Virus record (IMG/VR): IMGVR_UViG_2851955134_000003
Coordinates: 1 to 41,806 of that record
DNA length: 41,806 nucleotides
Strand: one strand, 5' to 3'
Origin: a virus
Lineage: Duplodnaviria > Heunggongvirae > Uroviricota > Caudoviricetes
Below are positions 532-41,806 of the stretch, one piece after another. The notes under the pieces are model-generated. The model ran no database searches. It worked only from the letters and a program-made list of their open reading frames with translations, and was not told the DNA's origin. The translations under genes were made by a program, and so were the position numbers. Each line of letters begins with the position of its first letter. The stretch's first letter is position 1.

Positions 532-1071
532 ATGAAGAAAGTTTTTCTTTGCGCCATCTTAGCCTCCTTAAGCTATCCGGCTATCGCCTCATCATTGCAG
601 GATCAACTCTCTGCTGTCGCAGAAGCGGAACAGCAAGGTAAAAATGAAGAGCAAAGGCAGCATGACGAATGGGTCGCGGAGCGCAACAGGGAAATCCAGC
701 AAGAGAAGCAACGTCGCGCAAATGCCCAGGCCGCCGCTAACAAAAGAGCGGCAACGGCAGCGGCAAATAAGAAAGCTCGTCAGGATAAACTGGACGCCGA
801 AGCCTCTGCGGACAAAAAACGCGATCAAAGTTATGAAGATGAGCTACGCAGCTTAGAGATTCAGAAACAAAAACTGGCGCTGGCGAAAGAAGAAGCCCGC
901 GTTAAGCGAGAAAACGAATTTATCGATCAGGAACTGAAGCACAAAGCTGCGCAAACCGATGTGGTGCAATCTGAAGCTGACGCCAACAGAAATATGACTG
1001 AAGGCGGTCGCGATCTGATGAAAAGCGTGGGCAAAGCAGAAGAGAACAAATCGGACAGCTGGTTTAATTAA
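532..1071 (+). CDS. yfgI: Host secreted charged/coiled-coil protein (YfgI-like)
   Basis: 179-aa ORF with N-terminal signal peptide, RBS AGGAGG 6 nt upstream, K/E/Q/A-rich body; followed by an intrinsic terminator. Confidence 0.55.
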   Translation: MKKVFLCAILASLSYPAIASSLQDQLSAVAEAEQQGKNEEQRQHDEWVAERNREIQQEKQRRANAQAAANKRAATAAANKKARQDKLDAEASADKKRDQSYEDELRSLEIQKQKLALAKEEARVKRENEFIDQELKHKAAQTDVVQSEADANRNMTEGGRDLMKSVGKAEENKSDSWFN

Positions 1072-2687: not shown

Positions 2688-3078
2688 CGTCTTTTCTCCC
2701 AGGAATTAACTCGCGTGGATTATCGGAATGGTGATAGAGCCAGATGCCAATTCGCACTGCGACTATTGCTGACACAAATGCGCCAGCAGAGAAAACAATC
2801 CCTTTCTCGAAAGAGTCCTGAGTAATGGTAGGAATTAGACTGGCTATGCCTATAAGAATTGATGCAGTTGGTTTGTAAAAGAGAAGACCACAAAGAAAGC
2901 TGAGTATCGACAAGAGTACACGACGACGAACAGGATACTCTACAGCAGAGGTAACAAAAATTACCGCTCCTGACAAAGACCCAAGAGCTACTTCTGGAGG
3001 CACTCCTGCTATCACCGCTGCTAGAGAACCAAGGCTAAGCCATTGATTTATTGACTCTCCTGTTAATTGAAATGACAT
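2677..3078 (-). CDS. Holin-like membrane protein
   Basis: 133 aa, multiple hydrophobic helices, charged C-terminus, first gene of the lysis cassette. Confidence 0.55.
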   Translation of the reverse strand: MSFQLTGESINQWLSLGSLAAVIAGVPPEVALGSLSGAVIFVTSAVEYPVRRRVLLSILSFLCGLLFYKPTASILIGIASLIPTITQDSFEKGIVFSAGAFVSAIVAVRIGIWLYHHSDNPRELIPGRKDDGN

Positions 3079-3493: not shown

Positions 3494-6076
3494 TTAAATA
3501 AACATAAGAATAAATATCAGAAGTTCCTCGTATCTGATACCATACTGATAGCCAGCAGGTTTAATAATAATCTGCCTTCCTGTGTAATATTCCTCGTCGT
3601 ACCACTCTCCTGTTTCATTGTTTTTAACACTCCTAATCAATACTTCTGGAGCATAAATATCATCCCATTCATCATAACACCAGAACGCATAGTTATTAGG
3701 GTCAAGACCGTATTTTCTGAGAATATTACCTACAGTTTGTGCACCAACACCGAAATGAATCCGAGCGCCATCACTCTTGATCTTTACTGCATCTTTAAAT
3801 TTAAACCTCCAGATATTTTCCTTTATTTCAAGCGCAGCAAGACGCTCTGATTCTGTTGTTTTCTCGTCAGCCTCAATACGCAATTTCAGCTCTTCATTCG
3901 ACGTGTTGATACTGCCAGTACCAGCGTATACCTGTGACCATCGAAATGCTGATGTTCCGTTTGAGTTAACATTATCAACAGTTGGTTTTATAAGGCCAGA
4001 AAAATGAGTTTCAGGTGTATTAATATATGTATATGCACCTGCTGTACTGCGAGTCCTTAACTCAAAACTGTCTATATCAACACCAGTCCTACGAATTATA
4101 AGGAAGTTATTTCCTGCGGAACCAGTATCTGTTTGAGTGCTAACAGATAATCCGTTTCGTGTATCAATACGTATATTCTTCCCGTTCTCCAGCGAAGCAG
4201 AATTATGTAGGTACAGCGAGTTGTCAGTGTAGAGATTGTGTTTACCTACATTACTAAATGTATAAGTATTGCTTGTGTCATCACTGTTCCTATGGAATTG
4301 CTGAAGAGTGTAGGCAGAAGATGCTCCGTATCCATCACAATGGAAATTTCTGCACAGCTGCAAATCGAATAACAATACGGTGTCAGCATTAATGCTCACA
4401 TTATTAAAGCATGTTGCAAAGTTGGCACCATACTGTGAATTGGAATCGCCAATCTGTGCGCACACATCAAGCAAACCAAAAGTTACATTGGTAAAGTTAT
4501 TTGCATCACCGGCGTCAAGAACAATCCCTTTCTTAGTCCCTGAATACCCTCTGGCAGTGCCGATCTCAATTCCCTGGAATGAACACACGCGAGCACGACT
4601 AAGCTTAAGACCAACCCATTCCAGACCATGATCGTAACCTTTTGCTGCGCGGTGAATAAACATACCATTCATGATGAGCAGGAATCTGTTATCCAGCCGT
4701 ACTGGTTCAAGTTGGGCATTAATACCAACATTTGTGCATATACATTCACCATAAGCATAACGATTCGTTTCAAATATACGATCATCAGCGTCGTAAATGC
4801 CTCGTAATGCCTTGGCGGCATCAATATTAAGCAATGTAAAATATGTCTTCTGCTTAATTTCAAAAAAATTTGCAACATTATGCGTTGTGATATCACTCAC
4901 ACGCATTGATAAAATCCCCTCTTCTGGAGCGGTGCGAATGAATCCATCAAGGAACTGTTCATTATAACTTTTGGCTATCTGATAACATCCAACAGCATCA
5001 ATGCGTTCGATTGTGAATTGCCAACTATCACCACAGTTAAAAGCCCATCTCCAGCCGTATTTCTGAGCGAATTCATCATATTCAACATTTGCAGGTTCAG
5101 AACAGAAAGATAAAAATATAAATGTTGGTTTTGGTCTGAGATGGTTAAGCCCGACACCTCTTGGAGTATATATAGCATTATCTCCATTCCCACCTTTTGT
5201 TTTAACTGTAAGGTGACTTAAACCAAATTCAATATCATATTTTGTTGGCGCAGCAAAAACAAAGCCGTCTTTTGGTGATGTGGTATTGTCAAACACAATA
5301 ACCGTTTCACCCTGCCCATCACCGCATATATTTATGGGTGGTATATTAACAGGACCAGTCACATTGTATATTCCTTTTGGCACATATAGTTTTCCGCCCT
5401 CTCCGAGAGCATTCGCTGCAGCAATAAATGCTGGCGTATCATCGATAATATTATCCCCTTTCGCCCCAAAATCTTTAACATTATAAACGTCACGCATCTT
5501 ATCCTGGAACGTTCTGTATACTGCCCCAGAACCATACTGAATAAACCAACCAAAACCACCAACAACTCCGGCGATTGCAGCATCGACATAATTACGCATT
5601 GAGCGATTATTTACAGCGTCCTGCTCAAGTGATGGATCTGCAAGGTTAGAAATTCTGTTTTGCTTTGCATCGTAATATTTTGCAAGCAAAGATGGTTTCA
5701 TCAATGCACGTCTGAACCACCCAAAACATTGCTGGATCAGCATCGTCAGGTAGTCAAAGGCATCTTCATGCACTTCGGGAAAAAACTTTCCCTGATTGCG
5801 AAGATCTGTCTCCTGTACTACATCAAGCACACGATCTATCGTAATTCGCCATCCAGTAGCAAGCGGAGACGGAAGAACCACAGAACCGCCACTATAAGTG
5901 CCAGCTCCAGTTACTGTATAACCGGTATCCAGAACCAATTCTGTTACGTTCCCGTTCAGGTCAGACACCTGAACAACCAGGTCGGATTTTTTGAAAATGC
6001 GGAAAGTATACGGAAACGATGTCGTAACTCCGTTACCGGTGTATTCGTTGTGGTCAACTTCGGTTGAGACCGTCAT
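3494..6076 (-). CDS. Tailspike/tail fibre with pectate-lyase-like beta-helix and C-terminal intramolecular chaperone (peptidase S74-like) domain
   Basis: 860 aa; conserved N-terminal anchor (FPYTFRIF); central region with DFGAKGDN and Asn/Gly/Thr-rich repeats typical of beta-helix depolymerases; C-terminal ~140 aa with GVGAQTVGNIL motif of auto-cleaving chaperone domains. Confidence 0.8.
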   Translation of the reverse strand: MTVSTEVDHNEYTGNGVTTSFPYTFRIFKKSDLVVQVSDLNGNVTELVLDTGYTVTGAGTYSGGSVVLPSPLATGWRITIDRVLDVVQETDLRNQGKFFPEVHEDAFDYLTMLIQQCFGWFRRALMKPSLLAKYYDAKQNRISNLADPSLEQDAVNNRSMRNYVDAAIAGVVGGFGWFIQYGSGAVYRTFQDKMRDVYNVKDFGAKGDNIIDDTPAFIAAANALGEGGKLYVPKGIYNVTGPVNIPPINICGDGQGETVIVFDNTTSPKDGFVFAAPTKYDIEFGLSHLTVKTKGGNGDNAIYTPRGVGLNHLRPKPTFIFLSFCSEPANVEYDEFAQKYGWRWAFNCGDSWQFTIERIDAVGCYQIAKSYNEQFLDGFIRTAPEEGILSMRVSDITTHNVANFFEIKQKTYFTLLNIDAAKALRGIYDADDRIFETNRYAYGECICTNVGINAQLEPVRLDNRFLLIMNGMFIHRAAKGYDHGLEWVGLKLSRARVCSFQGIEIGTARGYSGTKKGIVLDAGDANNFTNVTFGLLDVCAQIGDSNSQYGANFATCFNNVSINADTVLLFDLQLCRNFHCDGYGASSAYTLQQFHRNSDDTSNTYTFSNVGKHNLYTDNSLYLHNSASLENGKNIRIDTRNGLSVSTQTDTGSAGNNFLIIRRTGVDIDSFELRTRSTAGAYTYINTPETHFSGLIKPTVDNVNSNGTSAFRWSQVYAGTGSINTSNEELKLRIEADEKTTESERLAALEIKENIWRFKFKDAVKIKSDGARIHFGVGAQTVGNILRKYGLDPNNYAFWCYDEWDDIYAPEVLIRSVKNNETGEWYDEEYYTGRQIIIKPAGYQYGIRYEELLIFILMFI

Positions 6077-6130: not shown

Positions 6131-6195
6131 TTACCTGAAAAACCACATATGGATAGAAAGACTGTGAATATGAATAGATATTACCTTTCAGGTAA
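6131..6195. promoter_or_regulatory. Promoter/operator module A: half-site TTACCT, AACCACATAT element, full operator TTACCTTTCAGGTAA (6181-6195)
   Basis: 15-bp inverted repeat with perfect 6-bp arms; same architecture recurs at 26115-26191, 32604-32680 and 35684-35760. Confidence 0.55.
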
Positions 6196-6232
6196 TTTTC
6201 AAAACGTGCTGGATAGCAAACAAATTATTTGA

Positions 6233-6252
6233 TACTGTATAAATATACAGTT
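6233..6252 (+). promoter_or_regulatory. LexA (SOS) box TACTGTATAAATATACAGTT overlapping the promoter of the small antirepressor-like gene
   Basis: CTGT-N8-ACAG with AT-rich centre, 18 of 20 matches to the consensus TACTGTATATATATACAGTA; TTGATA -35-like hexamer at 6229-6234; gene starts 21 bp downstream. Confidence 0.7.
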
Positions 6253-6272
6253 ATTGCATGGAGAAGATTAAG

Positions 6273-6530
6273 ATGCAGCAGTATCACTATCCACTGGAAG
6301 AGGGATTTACCGAAAGGATTCACACGCCGGGAGGCGTCAGGTCACTGGTGGAGGGATCGCACTTGATGAAATTACTCCGGGATCTCGATAAGGATGGATT
6401 TAATGTCGATGGCCCACTTGCCGAACTGACTGCACTGATTAACTACGTCACCAGCTCACAGATGTCTATGCAGGATCTGCAAACACATCTCGACTATTGT
6501 GCCGAACAATTACGAAAACAAACCAGATAA
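6273..6530 (+). CDS. Small (85 aa) antirepressor-like protein, standalone copy of the C-terminal domain shared by the two Ant proteins
   Basis: Start ATG 6273 with RBS GGAGAAG; YHYPLEEGF...IHTPGGV...QTHLDY aligns with the C-terminal ~80 aa of the ORFs at 6844-7536 and 9054-9998; LexA box directly upstream. Confidence 0.6.
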   Translation: MQQYHYPLEEGFTERIHTPGGVRSLVEGSHLMKLLRDLDKDGFNVDGPLAELTALINYVTSSQMSMQDLQTHLDYCAEQLRKQTR

Positions 6531-6561: not shown

Positions 6562-6576
6562 TTACCTTTGCGGTAA
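6562..6576. promoter_or_regulatory. Operator-like site TTACCTTTGCGGTAA inside a larger palindrome (GGAGTGC ... GCACTCC, 6549-6592)
   Basis: Variant of the 15-bp motif, nested between 7-bp inverted arms. Confidence 0.4.
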
Positions 6577-6670
6577 ATTTACATCGCACTCCTCTTGTGC
6601 CATAGTAATCGGGCACTGGCAAAATCCAGTGCCGGGATTGGTCTCCCGGATTACTACAGAGGCACATATG

Positions 6671-6690
6671 CCGCATAAGCGGTTTTTTTA
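6671..6690 (+). terminator. Rho-independent terminator downstream of the small antirepressor-like gene
   Basis: Hairpin CCGC-ataa-GCGG followed by TTTTTTT. Confidence 0.5.
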
Positions 6691-6843
6691 TGTGTAAAGC
6701 GCACCTATTCTATGGTGGGCTGTGTGGGGGCACCGAAAGGTGCGCCGGGTTCCTTTGTAGCCGGTAAGACCAACTCTGCACAGTTCACCACCATCTGATT
6801 GGTCTCAGCGGTGGTGATTAACCTAACTACAAAGGTGATCGCC

Positions 6844-7536
6844 ATGAATACCAAACCTTCCATCTTTTCCTTTGAGTCATCCTGCCAGATCCGTATGTTC
6901 ATGATTGACGGAGAACCTTGGTTTGTCACCAAAGATGTGTGCAATGCTTTGAATATTGATGTTACACAAGCGAGAAAACTTGATAAAAAAGGCTGGAACA
7001 AAAAGGGGCTGTATTCAATACAGACCCCTGGTGGAATACAAGAACTATCCATCGTTTCAGAATCAGGTCTCTACATCCTTATTCTGCGTTGCAAAGAGGC
7101 AATGACTGAGGGAACGAGAGCATTCAGATTTCTTGAATGGGTTACAGGCGAAGTACTTCCTCAGATCCGCCGCACCGGAAGTTACATTAAAAACTCGCTC
7201 CCGCAGGAAGAACGCATAAAGATGGTTGCCGACCAGGTAGCCAACGCCACGGCGTCAGCAGTAATGCAGGCGATGAAGATAGAGAACAAAACCTACAGCG
7301 CCCCGCTGAAGCCCGGCTACCGCAGTCTGATTCATTCGCCGTCTGGTGTTCTCGGCCTGACGGAGAACTCATTGCTGATGAATCTGCTGAATCAGTTGCA
7401 GGACGACGGGCATGATGTATCGGGCGCGGCGGCGGAACTGACCACCATGTTCTGCTACATCGTCGGTGTGAGCAAATGCCTGCGTGATATCCAGACGCAC
7501 GCGGAGTACATCAACGACAAGGCAGGGTTCTTCTGA
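6844..7536 (+). CDS. Antirepressor with Bro-N N-terminal domain and shared Ant C-terminal domain
   Basis: 230 aa from ATG 6844 (RBS AAGGTGA); Bro-N hallmarks IRMFMIDGEPWFVTKDVCNAL ... LPQIRRTGSY; C-terminal ~80 aa near-identical to the Ant at 9054-9998. Confidence 0.8.
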   Translation: MNTKPSIFSFESSCQIRMFMIDGEPWFVTKDVCNALNIDVTQARKLDKKGWNKKGLYSIQTPGGIQELSIVSESGLYILILRCKEAMTEGTRAFRFLEWVTGEVLPQIRRTGSYIKNSLPQEERIKMVADQVANATASAVMQAMKIENKTYSAPLKPGYRSLIHSPSGVLGLTENSLLMNLLNQLQDDGHDVSGAAAELTTMFCYIVGVSKCLRDIQTHAEYINDKAGFF

Positions 7537-7650: not shown

Positions 7651-7860
7651 ATGGGATTTTGGTTCGCTCGTACAAAAACGAGGGATAATGCACCCAGCCC
7701 TCAGGCAAAAAATGCAGAAGTTCCGGCGTCAGCGCAGGTTAACAAGCGTGGTGGTGTGTATATCTCATCACAGCAAATTTCTGAGCTTCCTGAGGTTAAG
7801 GAGATGCGTCGTCTCGCTGCTGCAATCGTTAAACAGGATCTTGCCACTGTAAGGAAATAG
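7651..7860 (+). CDS. Hypothetical small protein (69 aa), first gene of a two-gene cargo cassette
   Basis: Strong RBS GAGGAGG 6 nt upstream; its stop overlaps the GTG start of the next gene (TAGTG), indicating translational coupling. Confidence 0.55.
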   Translation: MGFWFARTKTRDNAPSPQAKNAEVPASAQVNKRGGVYISSQQISELPEVKEMRRLAAAIVKQDLATVRK

Positions 7861-8726
7861 TGTTGTTAGCTCTTCTAATTATCCCCATTCTGGTTAGTGG
7901 TTATATTATGATAACCGCTAACCAGTATCATTATTTCCGTTTATACCGACATGAAGGCCAGCTTCTTTATATGAAAGTAGCTGCATTAGGTACATATTGC
8001 CTTGTTGCTTCGGTAATAATTGCCGCATTTATAAAATATAAATATCCTGATTTTCACCTAGTTCACGATATGGTGGAAACTTTTAATGTAACGTCAAAAC
8101 CAGAAACAGATAGAATTTACATGTGGCTGCTTCTTCTCTCAGCCACATCCATTTGCTTCTCTTTGTGTTATGTGTCTGTTGTGTGGGTGAAAGATTTTCT
8201 TCTTGGTTGTTTTTATAAACGTGATATTTACGAGCAAAAAACAGAGGCAATGAAGGCCAGAGTACTGCGAAAAACTTACTCGCAAGGTTCTTTAGACTTA
8301 CTATTGCTTGATGCTATTGAATCGGATCCTAAACGACCAATGCTGATTACTTTATCATCAAACAAAGTGTATGTTGGAATAATAAATGGTTCTGGTGAAC
8401 CAACGGAAAATCAGGGTCCGCATCAGCACATATCTTTTGTTCCTTTAATGTCAGGATACAGGAACAAAGACAACTTATCTGTCACATTCACTAATGCTTA
8501 TCCAGGAGAAATACAGGTCAAGCGGACTGCAGCAATAAGAGGAATTAGCAGAAAGAAAGTGCCAGGACTTGAGATCATGGTGTCTATTGACGAAATAAGT
8601 TATATATCATGGTTTGATTTTGAAGTATATAAAGCAACAAATAACAAAGTAGAATCCAGGGGGCACGTTATTCGTGTTACCAAAAATGGAAGAAATATAT
8701 ATCAAAGAAATAGCAAAAAAGAATAG
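7860..8726 (+). CDS. Hypothetical membrane protein (288 aa): three N-terminal TM helices plus ~170-aa soluble C-terminal domain; candidate superinfection-exclusion/abortive-infection factor
   Basis: AT-rich ORF coupled to the upstream small gene, followed by an intrinsic terminator; the exclusion/defence role is inferred from position in the immI-like region, not from sequence similarity. Confidence 0.5.
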   Translation: MLLALLIIPILVSGYIMITANQYHYFRLYRHEGQLLYMKVAALGTYCLVASVIIAAFIKYKYPDFHLVHDMVETFNVTSKPETDRIYMWLLLLSATSICFSLCYVSVVWVKDFLLGCFYKRDIYEQKTEAMKARVLRKTYSQGSLDLLLLDAIESDPKRPMLITLSSNKVYVGIINGSGEPTENQGPHQHISFVPLMSGYRNKDNLSVTFTNAYPGEIQVKRTAAIRGISRKKVPGLEIMVSIDEISYISWFDFEVYKATNNKVESRGHVIRVTKNGRNIYQRNSKKE

Positions 8727-26114: not shown

Positions 26115-26191
26115 TTACCAATTTAACCACATATGATTTATTTATCGTAGACAGTTGACATTTAACGTGCGAATTATTACCTTTCAGGTAA
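26115..26191. promoter_or_regulatory. Promoter/operator module B: TTACCA half-site, AACCACATAT, TTGACA -35-like hexamer, operator TTACCTTTCAGGTAA (26177-26191)
   Basis: Operator 15-mer identical to the one at 6181-6195; same module architecture. Confidence 0.55.
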
Positions 26192-26513: not shown

Positions 26514-26590
26514 GTGGCATTAGCTCAGTTGGACAGAGCAACCGCCTTCTAAGCGGTTGGTCGCAGGTTCGAATCCTGCATGCCACGCCA
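26514..26590 (+). tRNA. Phage-encoded tRNA-Arg (anticodon UCU)
   Basis: 77-nt cloverleaf folded by hand: acceptor GTGGCAT/ATGCCAC, D-arm GCTC/GAGC, anticodon stem ACCGC/GCGGT with loop CTTCTAA, T-arm GCAGG-TTCGAAT-CCTGC, discriminator G and encoded CCA; differs from host argU in the stems. Confidence 0.9.
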
Positions 26591-32603: not shown

Positions 32604-32680
32604 TTACCTCTGAGGTAATTAAAAACCACATAAGACACGAAATCAATAGATGTTAGAACATTTTATTACCTAACAGGTAA
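32604..32680. promoter_or_regulatory. Promoter/operator module C: TTACCTCTGAGGTAA (32604-32618), AACCACATAA, TTACCTAACAGGTAA (32666-32680)
   Basis: Two perfect-arm 15-bp sites 62 bp apart centre to centre, directly upstream of the nuclease-like gene start. Confidence 0.55.
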
Positions 32681-34888: not shown

Positions 34889-34933
34889 AGCTATTGCCTG
34901 ATATTTATTTCAGATAATAAATATTCACCCATA

Positions 34934-34987
34934 AGGTAACAAAAATCAAGGATAGTTACCTATGGGGTGCATTTACCTGTTGGGTAA
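34934..34987. promoter_or_regulatory. Immunity-region operators between cro-like and cI-like genes
   Basis: Divergent half-sites AGGTAAC (34934-34940) and GTTACCT (34955-34961) plus 15-mer TTACCTGTTGGGTAA (34973-34987). Confidence 0.5.
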
Positions 34988-35042: not shown

Positions 35043-35627
35043 ATGAAAAGTATCCAGGACGTCCGCAGGCAAAATCTCAACGACTTGATCGACCGTGAAT
35101 TCAATGGTGTTCAGACGCGGATGGCAGAAAAACTTGGAACTCAGGCAAATCTGGTAAACCGCTGGGCTCTTGGCAAGAAGGTTATCGGCGACCAGGTTGC
35201 GCGAAAAATTGAAGCTGCCGCCAATAAACCACGTAACTGGCTTGATATCGATCGCTCGCTTTCTCAGGAAGGTTTTCAGCCTGTCGGCCCAAGCGACATT
35301 GGTCAGCTGGCGGCTCACAACCTGGAACGCTGGATGAGCGAAAGCCGCGACCTTTCAACGCAGGGAAAACTACACCGCGCATCCGGCGTCGCCCAGGTGA
35401 CAATCAGCCGCCTGTTAAACAATGAGGTCAGCGTTTCCATTTCCACCCTGGAGAATGTTGCATCCGCATTCGGGCGTCACGGCTATGAATTACTGATTCA
35501 CCCGCACGACCCTGCGACCATCAACTATGATCGCTCGCGCTACGCATTGTTACCCGAAACCGAGAAAGCAAAGATCGAAAGTTACATTGAATTTGTCATC
35601 AACCAGAACGAAAAAAACAAACAATAA
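35043..35627 (+). CDS. CI-like prophage repressor with two HTH regions and no S24 peptidase domain
   Basis: 194 aa; N-terminal HTH (RMAEKLGTQANLVNRWALG) and second HTH-like segment (ASGVAQVTISRLLNNE); no Ser-Lys autocleavage domain; divergent from cro-like gene. Confidence 0.7.
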   Translation: MKSIQDVRRQNLNDLIDREFNGVQTRMAEKLGTQANLVNRWALGKKVIGDQVARKIEAAANKPRNWLDIDRSLSQEGFQPVGPSDIGQLAAHNLERWMSESRDLSTQGKLHRASGVAQVTISRLLNNEVSVSISTLENVASAFGRHGYELLIHPHDPATINYDRSRYALLPETEKAKIESYIEFVINQNEKNKQ

Positions 35628-35683: not shown

Positions 35684-35760
35684 TTACCTAACGGGTAATT
35701 TTTTTAACTCATACCTATTGACATCAAACCATATACGCATAATTATTACCTCAACGGTAA
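35684..35760 (+). promoter_or_regulatory. Early-left promoter/operator module D: TTACCTAACGGGTAA, -35 TTGACA, AACCATATAC, TTACCTCAACGGTAA
   Basis: Two operator-like sites 62 bp apart flanking a TTGACA -35 hexamer (35718-35723); drives the plus-strand recombination operon. Confidence 0.55.
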
Positions 35761-40555: not shown

Positions 40556-41806
40556 TTATTCCCCCGCCATCCACTTCTCAAACTTCGACGGGGAGAACGG
40601 AATCAGATCCGTATGCTCCCCATTAATCCAGGAATCAATCATATCGGCCCACTGCTGCAACATGTAGGCGCGCTGTCTGGCGTATTCCGCTTTGTTATAT
40701 ACGGCGCGCACACCTTTCTGCTCATGTGCCAGAGCCTTTTCAATCCAGTCTGAAGGATAACCAGCCTCATGCAACAACGTACTGGCTGTACGGCGCATAT
40801 CATGTACGGTGAAGTCCTGAATATGCTCACCATCTTCATTTATTATTTTCACCGTTCTGTCGATCAGAGAGTTCAGAGCGGCATTAGATAATGGCTTCCG
40901 GAAGTTGTAACGACCAGGAACCAGATATTCACTTCCACCAGCGCACATCTGCAACCCGACCAATATATCCTGTGCCTGTTTAGGCAGGTAAATAACGTGC
41001 GCCCGGCTTCCCTTCATGCGGTCTGAAGGAATTGTCCATGTCCATTTTTTAAAATCTATTTCGTCCCACGTTGCATTGGTGAATTCGCCTTTACGAACCA
41101 TAGTGATAAGCACCAGCTTTAAAGCCATTTTCATAGTGCCCATAGCACCAATGGCATCCAGCGTACGGAAGAACAGGCCAATTTCTTCTGGTGTCAGTGT
41201 TCGCTCTCGTGGTTTAAATATGGCGATAGACGAAGGTTTAATGTCAGCCGCAGGATTAAACAAACCATGACCACGGTCATTGGCGTGACGGTATACGCTG
41301 CTGATGATCTCCCTGGCCTGCACTGCTGTTGCCCGACCACCGCGTTCGACAATCCGGTCACACAAATCACGAACCATCGATGTGGTAATTTCAGCCATCA
41401 TTTTGTTGCCAAGAACAGGAAGTATGTCACGGTCGATCACTGCCTGCTTCATTGCGCGGGTACTGTCAGCCAGGATGACGTGTTTCATATAACTGTCGGT
41501 ATGTACCGCAAACGTCTCGGCACCACGAATCTTTTTGATACCGTCACGTTTAGCCGCAGCCGGCGACTGGCCTGCTTTAAGCAGCTTCTTTGCAGCAATC
41601 AGTTCTTCTCGCGCTTCTGCCAGGCTGATACCGTCACGCCCATACTGCCCGATTACCAGTGTTTCGCGGCGACCGTTGATACGGTAGTCATAGCGAAACG
41701 AGACCGTGCCTGACGTAAGCACAGCTACATACAGCCCGTCACGATCGGAGACCTTGTACAGTTTGTCCTGCGGCTTGAGGTTTTTTAATTTTGTATCGGT
41801 AAGCAC
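40556..41806 (-). CDS. int: Tyrosine integrase (P4/CP4-57-like), N-terminus truncated by the window edge
   Basis: N-terminal arm-binding pattern LTDTKLKNLKP; C-terminal catalytic region with HDMRRT and final tyrosine (RAVYNKAEY); ORF runs to the last base of the window. Confidence 0.9.
   Translation of the reverse strand: MLTDTKLKNLKPQDKLYKVSDRDGLYVAVLTSGTVSFRYDYRINGRRETLVIGQYGRDGISLAEAREELIAAKKLLKAGQSPAAAKRDGIKKIRGAETFAVHTDSYMKHVILADSTRAMKQAVIDRDILPVLGNKMMAEITTSMVRDLCDRIVERGGRATAVQAREIISSVYRHANDRGHGLFNPAADIKPSSIAIFKPRERTLTPEEIGLFFRTLDAIGAMGTMKMALKLVLITMVRKGEFTNATWDEIDFKKWTWTIPSDRMKGSRAHVIYLPKQAQDILVGLQMCAGGSEYLVPGRYNFRKPLSNAALNSLIDRTVKIINEDGEHIQDFTVHDMRRTASTLLHEAGYPSDWIEKALAHEQKGVRAVYNKAEYARQRAYMLQQWADMIDSWINGEHTDLIPFSPSKFEKWMAGE

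Follow-up and report, generated by a model that had tools for sequence, protein, structure and literature searches.

LexA-controlled antirepression of the SPC32H type as the probable lysis-lysogeny switch of a phiV10-like temperate phage

The lysis-lysogeny switch of the phage analysed here is very probably an antirepression system of the Rep/Ant type known from phage SPC32H. In the window, by which we mean the whole 41,806-nt stretch of DNA that was analysed, a near-consensus LexA (SOS) box lies in front of a small gene, ant, whose product is an ortholog of the crystallised SPC32H antirepressor. The prophage repressor, encoded by rep, is related over its full length to the crystallised partner of that antirepressor and lacks an autocleavage domain, and the trio of box, small gene and repressor is conserved in related phages. 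The elements of the proposed switch are:

6181–6195: palindrome TTACCTTTCAGGTAA of the Rep operator type, some 15 bp ahead of the proposed −35 element of ant
6210–6238, plus strand: proposed ant promoter, with −35 TGGATA (6210–6215), a 17-nt spacer and an extended −10 TGaTACTGT (6230–6238)
6233–6252: LexA box TACTGTATAAATATACAGTT, agreeing with 18 of 20 consensus positions
6260–6263, plus strand: Shine-Dalgarno sequence GGAG of ant, 9 nt before ATG 6273, invariant in the alignment of eight phages described below
6273–6530, plus strand: ant, 85-aa antirepressor, ortholog of SPC32H Ant (PDB 5D50_E, PHROG 450, synteny)
35043–35627, plus strand: rep, 194-aa prophage repressor without an autocleavage domain, homolog of SPC32H Rep (5D50_A, Pfam)

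The window represents a phiV10/epsilon15-like temperate podophage (Uetakevirus), and the region around ant is 92–98% identical to phiV10-group Escherichia phages, which are relatives of Salmonella phage epsilon15. The gene order is that of phiV10, in which the tailspike gene is followed by a divergent small gene (PhiV10p24, annotated as 'hypothetical protein') and then by a gene for a Bro-N protein; the succession of tailspike, divergent ant and structural genes is common to the window, phiV10, SPC32H and epsilon15. Further landmarks of the genome are:

1–516 and 532–1071, plus strand: genes of a glycine-zipper, TraT-like lipoprotein and of a DUF5384 protein, adjoining the attP core
1162–1178: attP core ATTGAGTGGGAATGATT, the core reported for phiV10, epsilon15 and ZX5
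3494–6076, minus strand: tailspike gene
40556–41806, minus strand: tyrosine integrase gene

Since a lysis cassette is present in the window as well as the integrase gene and the attP core, and since the single attP core is internal and the integrase gene lies at the far end, these data suggest a complete, circularly permuted phage genome. The TraT-like lipoprotein and the DUF5384 protein are probably lysogenic-conversion cargo. The phage also carries a tRNA-Arg gene (anticodon TCT; 26514–26590, plus strand), with a Rep-type operator (26177–26191) about 320 bp upstream of it. A PADLOC search with Ant and its neighbours returned nothing except one weak TIR-like match, to ThsB (E 0.006), in a 203-aa protein of PHROG 8033 (10833–11444, plus strand), which could be an accessory defence gene; a neighbour of this protein is a 288-aa member of PHROG 3630 (7860–8726).

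The ant open reading frame spans 6258–6530. We take ATG 6273 as its likely start, giving a product of 85 aa, because the GGAG preceding it is invariant in an alignment of eight Uetakeviruses from four host genera (Escherichia, Salmonella, Enterobacter and Klebsiella), because the Klebsiella relatives lack the ATG found further upstream, at 6258, and because the annotated and crystallised SPC32H Ant begins at the codon equivalent to ATG 6273. A TTG-initiated frame at 6229–6366, inside the range assigned to the locus by an earlier note made from the sequence alone, was rejected as a chance ORF spanning the promoter. One solved structure was matched by Ant, chain E of PDB 5D50 ('Anti-repressor protein'), with an E-value of 1.6e-47 over residues 2–84 of 85, and the protein was assigned to PHROG 450 (E 1e-47). 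Translation of the SPC32H ant CDS, a gene named ant in its GenBank record, yields exactly the 5D50_E sequence; Ant of the window has the same length and is about 88–89% identical to it (89% by tblastn to the ant locus). Pfam and NCBIfam returned no significant family for the Ant domain, and neither P22_AR_N nor P22_AR_C was detected by Pfam in the 85-aa protein. Since Ant matches 5D50_E and the cI-like protein encoded by rep matches 5D50_A, the locus is orthologous to the Rep/Ant switch of SPC32H, here in an E. coli phage. What distinguishes an Ant of this type, namely whole-length homology, a cognate Rep in the same genome and a LexA box at the ant promoter, was found at the level of sequence.

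The box TACTGTATAAATATACAGTT differs from the SOS consensus TACTGTATATATATACAGTA at two positions. It is the sole site with three or fewer mismatches in the 41.8-kb window, and none of 100 shuffled sequences contained any such site, which bears out the near-consensus SOS box described in the earlier note. The pattern CTGT-N8-ACAG occurs three times in the window, and the spacer is AT-rich only in the copy at 6233–6252. The box has the same position relative to ant as in SPC32H and is found at the small gene only; the best match upstream of either of the two long genes with an Ant domain, described below, has at least eight mismatches. A generic promoter scan (threshold 9 of 12) called no promoter over the box, and the elements of the proposed promoter were read by eye; in the eight-phage alignment, CTGGA and TG-N-TA are invariant or nearly so. 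With these elements, the LexA box would cover the −10 element and the start site of the ant promoter. An alternative −35 element TTGATA (6229–6234) with a −10 element TATTGC was rejected because TATTGC is not conserved in the same alignment.

The Rep protein aligned to 5D50_A ('Repressor') over its full length, residues 1–190, with an E-value of 4e-42. Its Pfam matches are confined to HTH_3 and other HTH families, no Peptidase_S24 match was obtained at E ≤ 0.01, and the HTH-type domain of 5D4Z is matched by its C-terminal half; the repressor to which Rep aligns over its entire length has two domains that are both of the HTH type. Unlike the LexA-type autocleavable repressors lambda CI and P22 C2, Rep contains no S24 domain with the Ser-Lys dyad. 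The earlier note had described this cI-like repressor as lacking an S24 peptidase domain and had suggested induction by an SOS-controlled antirepressor instead of repressor cleavage; the Pfam results agree with the former, and the latter is supported by the homology of the two proteins to 5D50_E and 5D50_A, the LexA box and the missing S24 domain.

Rep is 100% identical to the repressors of phiV10 and ZX5 and only 42–43% identical to SPC32H Rep, so that binding of Ant to Rep in the window phage is extrapolated. The N-terminal domain is the best conserved part, which would fit an unchanged operator specificity. Between the window phage and SPC32H, Rep has diverged (~43% identity), Ant is about 89% identical and the operator motif is the same; the divergence of Rep appears to have changed neither its DNA target nor, apparently, its antirepressor. 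The name rep is that given to the repressor gene in the SPC32H record, and the RefSeq record of epsilon15 cites 5D50_A for its repressor.

We counted 12 copies of the palindrome TTACC-N5-GGTAA in the window (0.78 expected), starting at 6181, 6562, 7610, 26177, 29323, 29341, 32604, 32666, 34925, 34973, 35684 and 35746. These 12 sites probably make up the complete Rep regulon of the phage. Operators 48–62 bp apart flank rep in pairs, the sites at 32604/32666 form a further pair, and unpaired sites occur in the accessory region and close to the tRNA gene. The pairs flanking rep are:

34925–34939 and 34973–34987: Rep-type operator pair between a divergent cro-like gene and rep
35684–35698 and 35746–35760: Rep-type operator pair bracketing a TTGACA promoter downstream of rep

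The same motif is present six times around rep in the immunity region of SPC32H, and the epsilon15 record annotates 'repressor binding sites' near rep and upstream of the ant homolog. At ant itself, the operator at 6181–6195 lies about 52 nt upstream of the LexA box, and 16 of the 17 loci compared have a Rep-type operator whose distance from ant varies little (−86 to −98). Since a conserved Rep-type operator stands just upstream of the ant promoter, this promoter is probably not controlled by LexA alone. Through this operator, Pant could be repressed or activated, with a Rep/Ant toggle as the result, or the operator could instead serve the divergent tailspike promoter.

The switch proposed from these elements would operate as follows. 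In the lysogen, Rep bound to the TTACC-N5-GGTAA operators would keep the early promoters off, and host LexA bound at 6233–6252 would keep ant silent. Upon DNA damage, activation of RecA would lead to self-cleavage of LexA and to synthesis of the 85-aa Ant; an Ant oligomer (a tetramer in SPC32H) would then bind Rep dimers and break the Rep tetramer, resulting in derepression of the lytic genes. LexA control and the mode of Rep inactivation are carried over here from the literature on the SPC32H ortholog, and we infer both the binding of the window Ant to the window Rep and the exact position of the ant promoter. The SPC32H switch was described by Kim & Ryu (2013, J Virol) and by Kim et al. (2016, PNAS; PDB 5D50 and 5D4Z), the latter reportedly finding that Ant contacts the C-terminal domains of Rep and captures its N-terminal DNA-binding domains, and that it does not compete at the DNA-binding surface of Rep. 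Two further publications describe the SPC32H mechanism: the repressor is inhibited through protein-protein contact with Ant, which is made once LexA has cleaved itself (PMC7380047), and the Rep tetramer that binds DNA is broken when an Ant tetramer binds two Rep dimers (PMC9638917).

Across 17 loci from several enterobacterial genera, the LexA box is conserved together with its spacing from ant and with the Rep partner. Within the eight Uetakeviruses of the alignment, the half-sites of the LexA box are conserved and its 8-nt spacer varies; the half-sites read CTGT/ACAG in six phages and ATGT/ACAG in the two Klebsiella phages, so in some relatives the left half-site is ATGT instead of CTGT. At nine further loci, comprising seven species representatives and two more distant loci, a LexA-like box starts 37–46 nt before codon 2 of ant. 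The representatives, from two Citrobacter species, 'Candidatus Erwinia dacicola', Superficieibacter, Pseudocitrobacter, Scandinavium and Klebsiella, are the seven loci obtained in a contig scan, a number that suits a check of conservation and is too small for statistics.

A survey of 50,697 phage records detected the Ant domain in 35 and Rep in 36, plus one weak partial match in a Pseudomonas phage, and the records carrying the Ant domain and those carrying Rep are essentially one set. The Ant family is small, with 62 representatives at 50% identity among 1.84 billion proteins. A match to the ant locus was found in 530 of 5426 complete E. coli genomes, and most of the locus is present in 522 of them (about one in ten); the Bro-N module was found in 117 and the P22_AR_N module in 34 of the same genomes. 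Among the matches listed, ant is labelled 'hypothetical protein' in the E. coli records. Prophages of the phiV10 species reportedly respond to a DNA-damaging microcin with a 21- to 47-fold induction (bioRxiv 10.64898/2026.05.26.727859), which is consistent with SOS control.

The Ant fold is present two more times in the window, as the C-terminal ~75 aa of two longer proteins, both of which match residues 3–79 of 5D50_E:

6844–7536, plus strand: 230-aa antirepressor with Bro-N (Pfam E 2e-13) and a C-terminal Ant domain (5D50_E, E 1.6e-13)
9054–9998, minus strand: 314-aa antirepressor with P22_AR_N (Pfam E 3.6e-44) and a C-terminal Ant domain (5D50_E, E 7.9e-14)

The alignment of the three copies proposed in the earlier note was borne out: Ant is 42% identical to residues 149–222 of the Bro-N protein (E 1e-15) and 44% identical to residues 235–306 of the P22_AR_N protein (E 4e-16), and the two long proteins share about 95% identity in their C-termini. 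The likeness of the small gene product to the C-terminal ~80 aa of both long proteins thus stands, and the further suggestion that the shared domain is the repressor-binding module is supported by two lines of evidence. In the SPC32H structure, the whole 86-aa Ant is the Rep-binding unit (PDB 5D50). In ZX5, overexpression of the Bro-N 'anti-repressor' (ORF4) reduced lysogens from 10^9 to 10^6 and lowered repressor transcription by 75% (PMC9782041); the Bro-N protein of the window is 80% identical to ORF4 overall and about 99% identical in the Ant domain, and Rep is identical in both phages. The authors of that study, the sole experimental work on an E. coli phage of this group known to us, gave the antirepressor activity to the Bro-N protein and mentioned neither LexA, SPC32H nor the small gene (PMC9782041); ZX5 carries the small ant with an identical LexA box. 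In the 314-aa protein, P22_AR_C is absent according to Pfam, the C-terminus having the SPC32H Ant fold instead. Elsewhere, the same domain was found behind AntA, Phage_pRha and ORF6N N-terminal domains, and a Rha fusion and an ORF6N fusion occupy the same slot, next to a small ant and a gene of tailspike size. The record of phiV10 annotates the Bro-N/Ant-domain gene as two CDS (PhiV10p23/p22; 4743–5422 of the phiV10 locus), the Ant domain is matched in two pieces, and the type phage appears to have a disrupted long antirepressor.

Each of the three Ant-domain genes is predicted to have a control of its own: LexA for the small gene, isrK/C4 antisense RNA for the Bro-N fusion, and a circuit resembling arc/sar/mnt of P22 immI for the P22_AR_N fusion. 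Upstream of the Bro-N/Ant-domain gene, the following features were identified:

6562–6576: Rep-type operator, abutting the −35 element of the promoter-like site before isrK
6578–6606: promoter-like site TTTACA-17-CATAGT, preceding isrK
6613–6689, plus strand: isrK-like Hfq-binding RNA with terminator at 6670–6683 (RF01394, 74.7 bits; gathering score 50)
6708–6795, plus strand: C4-type antisense RNA (RF01695, 78.6 bits; gathering score 45)
6827–6835, plus strand: C4 loop target CTACAAAGG, overlapping the ribosome-binding site of the Bro-N/Ant-domain gene

The loop CCUUUGUAG of the C4 RNA (6752–6760) is perfectly complementary over 9 nt to CTACAAAGG. The isrK region also has C4 a1/b1-like targets (RF03163 at 6600–6652, 39.9 bits, below the gathering score), and a second near-match to the C4 target, CTACAGAGG (6654–6662), lies inside isrK. 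A CDS of ZX5 annotated as 'ash family protein' (2944–3057 of the ZX5 locus) overlaps the region aligned with the C4 RNA of the window and may represent an RNA gene miscalled as protein-coding. The placement of isrK and C4 directly upstream of a Bro-N antirepressor gene is like that in immI of P1 and P7 (c4-icd-ant) and in isrK-anrP of Gifsy-1 (PMC4825925), and the complementarity of the C4 loop to the ribosome-binding site of the antirepressor gene resembles the logic of P1 immI; no icd-like ORF was identified at the isrK/C4/Bro-N locus of the window. Unlike in these systems, the antirepressor of the window carries an SPC32H Ant domain and a Rep-type operator abuts the promoter.

The surroundings of the P22_AR_N/Ant-domain gene are as follows:

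10000–10067, plus strand: sar-type antisense RNA, opposite the leader of the P22_AR_N/Ant gene (RF00262, 45.2 bits; gathering score 43)
10071–10235, minus strand: small ORF of 54 aa that separates the antirepressor gene from the Pant-like promoter, called arc-like from a comparison with P22 Arc by eye
10302–10274, minus strand: promoter-like site TTGACA-17-GACAAT (Pant-like)
10359–10790, plus strand: divergent 143-aa Arc-domain (ribbon-helix-helix) protein in the position of P22 mnt (Pfam Arc, E 1.2e-14)

The 54-aa ORF had no Pfam match. The start of the Arc-domain protein was placed at ATG 10359 because its match to PHROG 1388 begins at residue 11. A palindrome, GCCCCAC-C-GTGGGGC (~10253–10267), lies between the Pant-like promoter and the arc-like ORF. 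Region 9054–10790 resembles P22 immI (mnt-Pant-arc-ant, sar) in having a P22_AR_N antirepressor, a sar RNA, an arc-like ORF and a divergent Arc-domain protein and, as in P22, it is located near the tailspike gene. However, the 314-aa protein differs from P22 Ant in that an SPC32H-type Ant domain replaces P22_AR_C, and its presumed target is Rep, whereas that of P22 Ant is the lambda-type C2.

This arrangement raises the question of whether SOS induction could proceed mainly via the long Bro-N/Ant protein, by read-through from the LexA-controlled promoter, with the 85-aa Ant being accessory. Our scan found no terminator-like site between the ant stop (6530) and the isrK terminator, and therefore LexA-controlled transcripts may reach isrK and possibly go beyond it; in addition, the Bro-N homolog of ZX5 has experimental antirepressor-like activity. 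Nevertheless, we consider this explanation improbable. Two obstacles, the terminator of isrK and the masking of the ribosome-binding site by C4, separate the long gene from the promoter; SPC32H, epsilon15 and further relatives, with one matching place per record, carry the small ant alone and no long form; and in phiV10 the Bro-N gene is in two pieces annotated as separate CDS. Still less likely, in our opinion, is a role of the 85-aa protein as a modulator of the long antirepressors that co-oligomerises with their C-terminal domains and titrates or alters them. Mixed oligomers are conceivable, given that SPC32H Ant is oligomeric and that the domain is common to all three proteins at 42–44% identity, but direct binding to Rep has been shown for SPC32H Ant, with which the window Ant shares about 88% identity, and the small form with its LexA box is found in many genomes without a long form. 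Inactivation of Rep by RecA-stimulated or other proteolysis, with the gene behind the LexA box unrelated to induction, is hardly credible, since we found no point supporting it and it is opposed by the lack of an S24 match in Rep (Pfam), by the full-length alignment to a repressor with two HTH-type domains and by the tight co-occurrence of the Rep and Ant genes.

The preferred reading, direct antirepression of Rep by the LexA-controlled small Ant, can be compared with other SOS-responsive prophages. The earlier note likened the system to Tum of coliphage 186 and to the Gifsy prophages, and this comparison holds as a functional analogy and not as homology: Pfam and NCBIfam returned no family for Ant, and the protein families differ. 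Tum, a LexA-repressed small antirepressor, inactivates the non-cleavable 186 CI by binding to it; it is a protein of 146 aa with a DinI-like C-terminal half. Profile scans revealed no relationship between Ant and Tum (no DinI match in Pfam, none in NCBIfam), and the repressor families differ. Tum is cited alongside SPC32H in PMC7380047. In Gifsy-1 and Gifsy-3, LexA-controlled antirepressors relay the SOS signal instead of repressor cleavage (Lemire et al. 2011, PMC3121763), as proposed here, through protein families that are different; cross-talk between prophages has been documented for the Gifsy phages (PMC3121763). The closest system is Rep/Ant of SPC32H, with an orthologous Ant, a Rep homologous over its full length, and the same gene order, LexA box position and TTACC-N5-GGTAA motif. 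The window differs from SPC32H by the addition of two larger Ant-fold proteins, each with its own RNA or protein regulators, of which SPC32H has none.

Since the mechanism is that of the published SPC32H Rep/Ant system and the locus is a close ortholog, the finding as such is already known, and its value lies mostly in the annotation of the ant locus. The right label would explain how phiV10-type prophages respond to DNA damage despite a repressor that does not cleave itself. The 2022 paper on the near-identical phage ZX5 discussed the switch without noticing the small gene or the LexA box (PMC9782041).

Two features of the window go beyond this. The Ant domain has been found behind five unrelated N-terminal modules (Bro-N, P22_AR_N, AntA, Rha and ORF6N), and in the window it occurs in three genes with different regulatory surroundings. 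To our knowledge, neither the use of the Ant fold three times, each time in a different regulatory circuit, nor a conserved Rep-type operator just upstream of a LexA-controlled ant promoter has been described previously. One could tentatively hypothesise, as a reading that is somewhat less likely to be right than wrong, that the phage has a three-input hub in which one Rep-binding domain is deployed three times, combined with a LexA-gated Rep/Ant toggle and with selection of the repressor by the C-terminal domain. If so, the Ant domain alone would answer to LexA, the Bro-N fusion would be under a Rep-operated promoter and a C4 RNA masking its ribosome-binding site, and the P22_AR_N fusion would be under the P22 immI-like arc/sar/mnt circuit. 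Through the operator at 6181–6195, Rep would block ant and Ant would block Rep, giving a mutual-inhibition toggle gated by LexA. In the 'phage antirepressor' superfamily, it would then be the variable C-terminal domain, and not the N-terminal domain after which the families are named, that picks the repressor. The three-copy arrangement makes it possible to test, in a natural setting, whether it is the N- or the C-terminal half of a modular phage antirepressor that recognises the repressor, and how several signals converge on one repressor.
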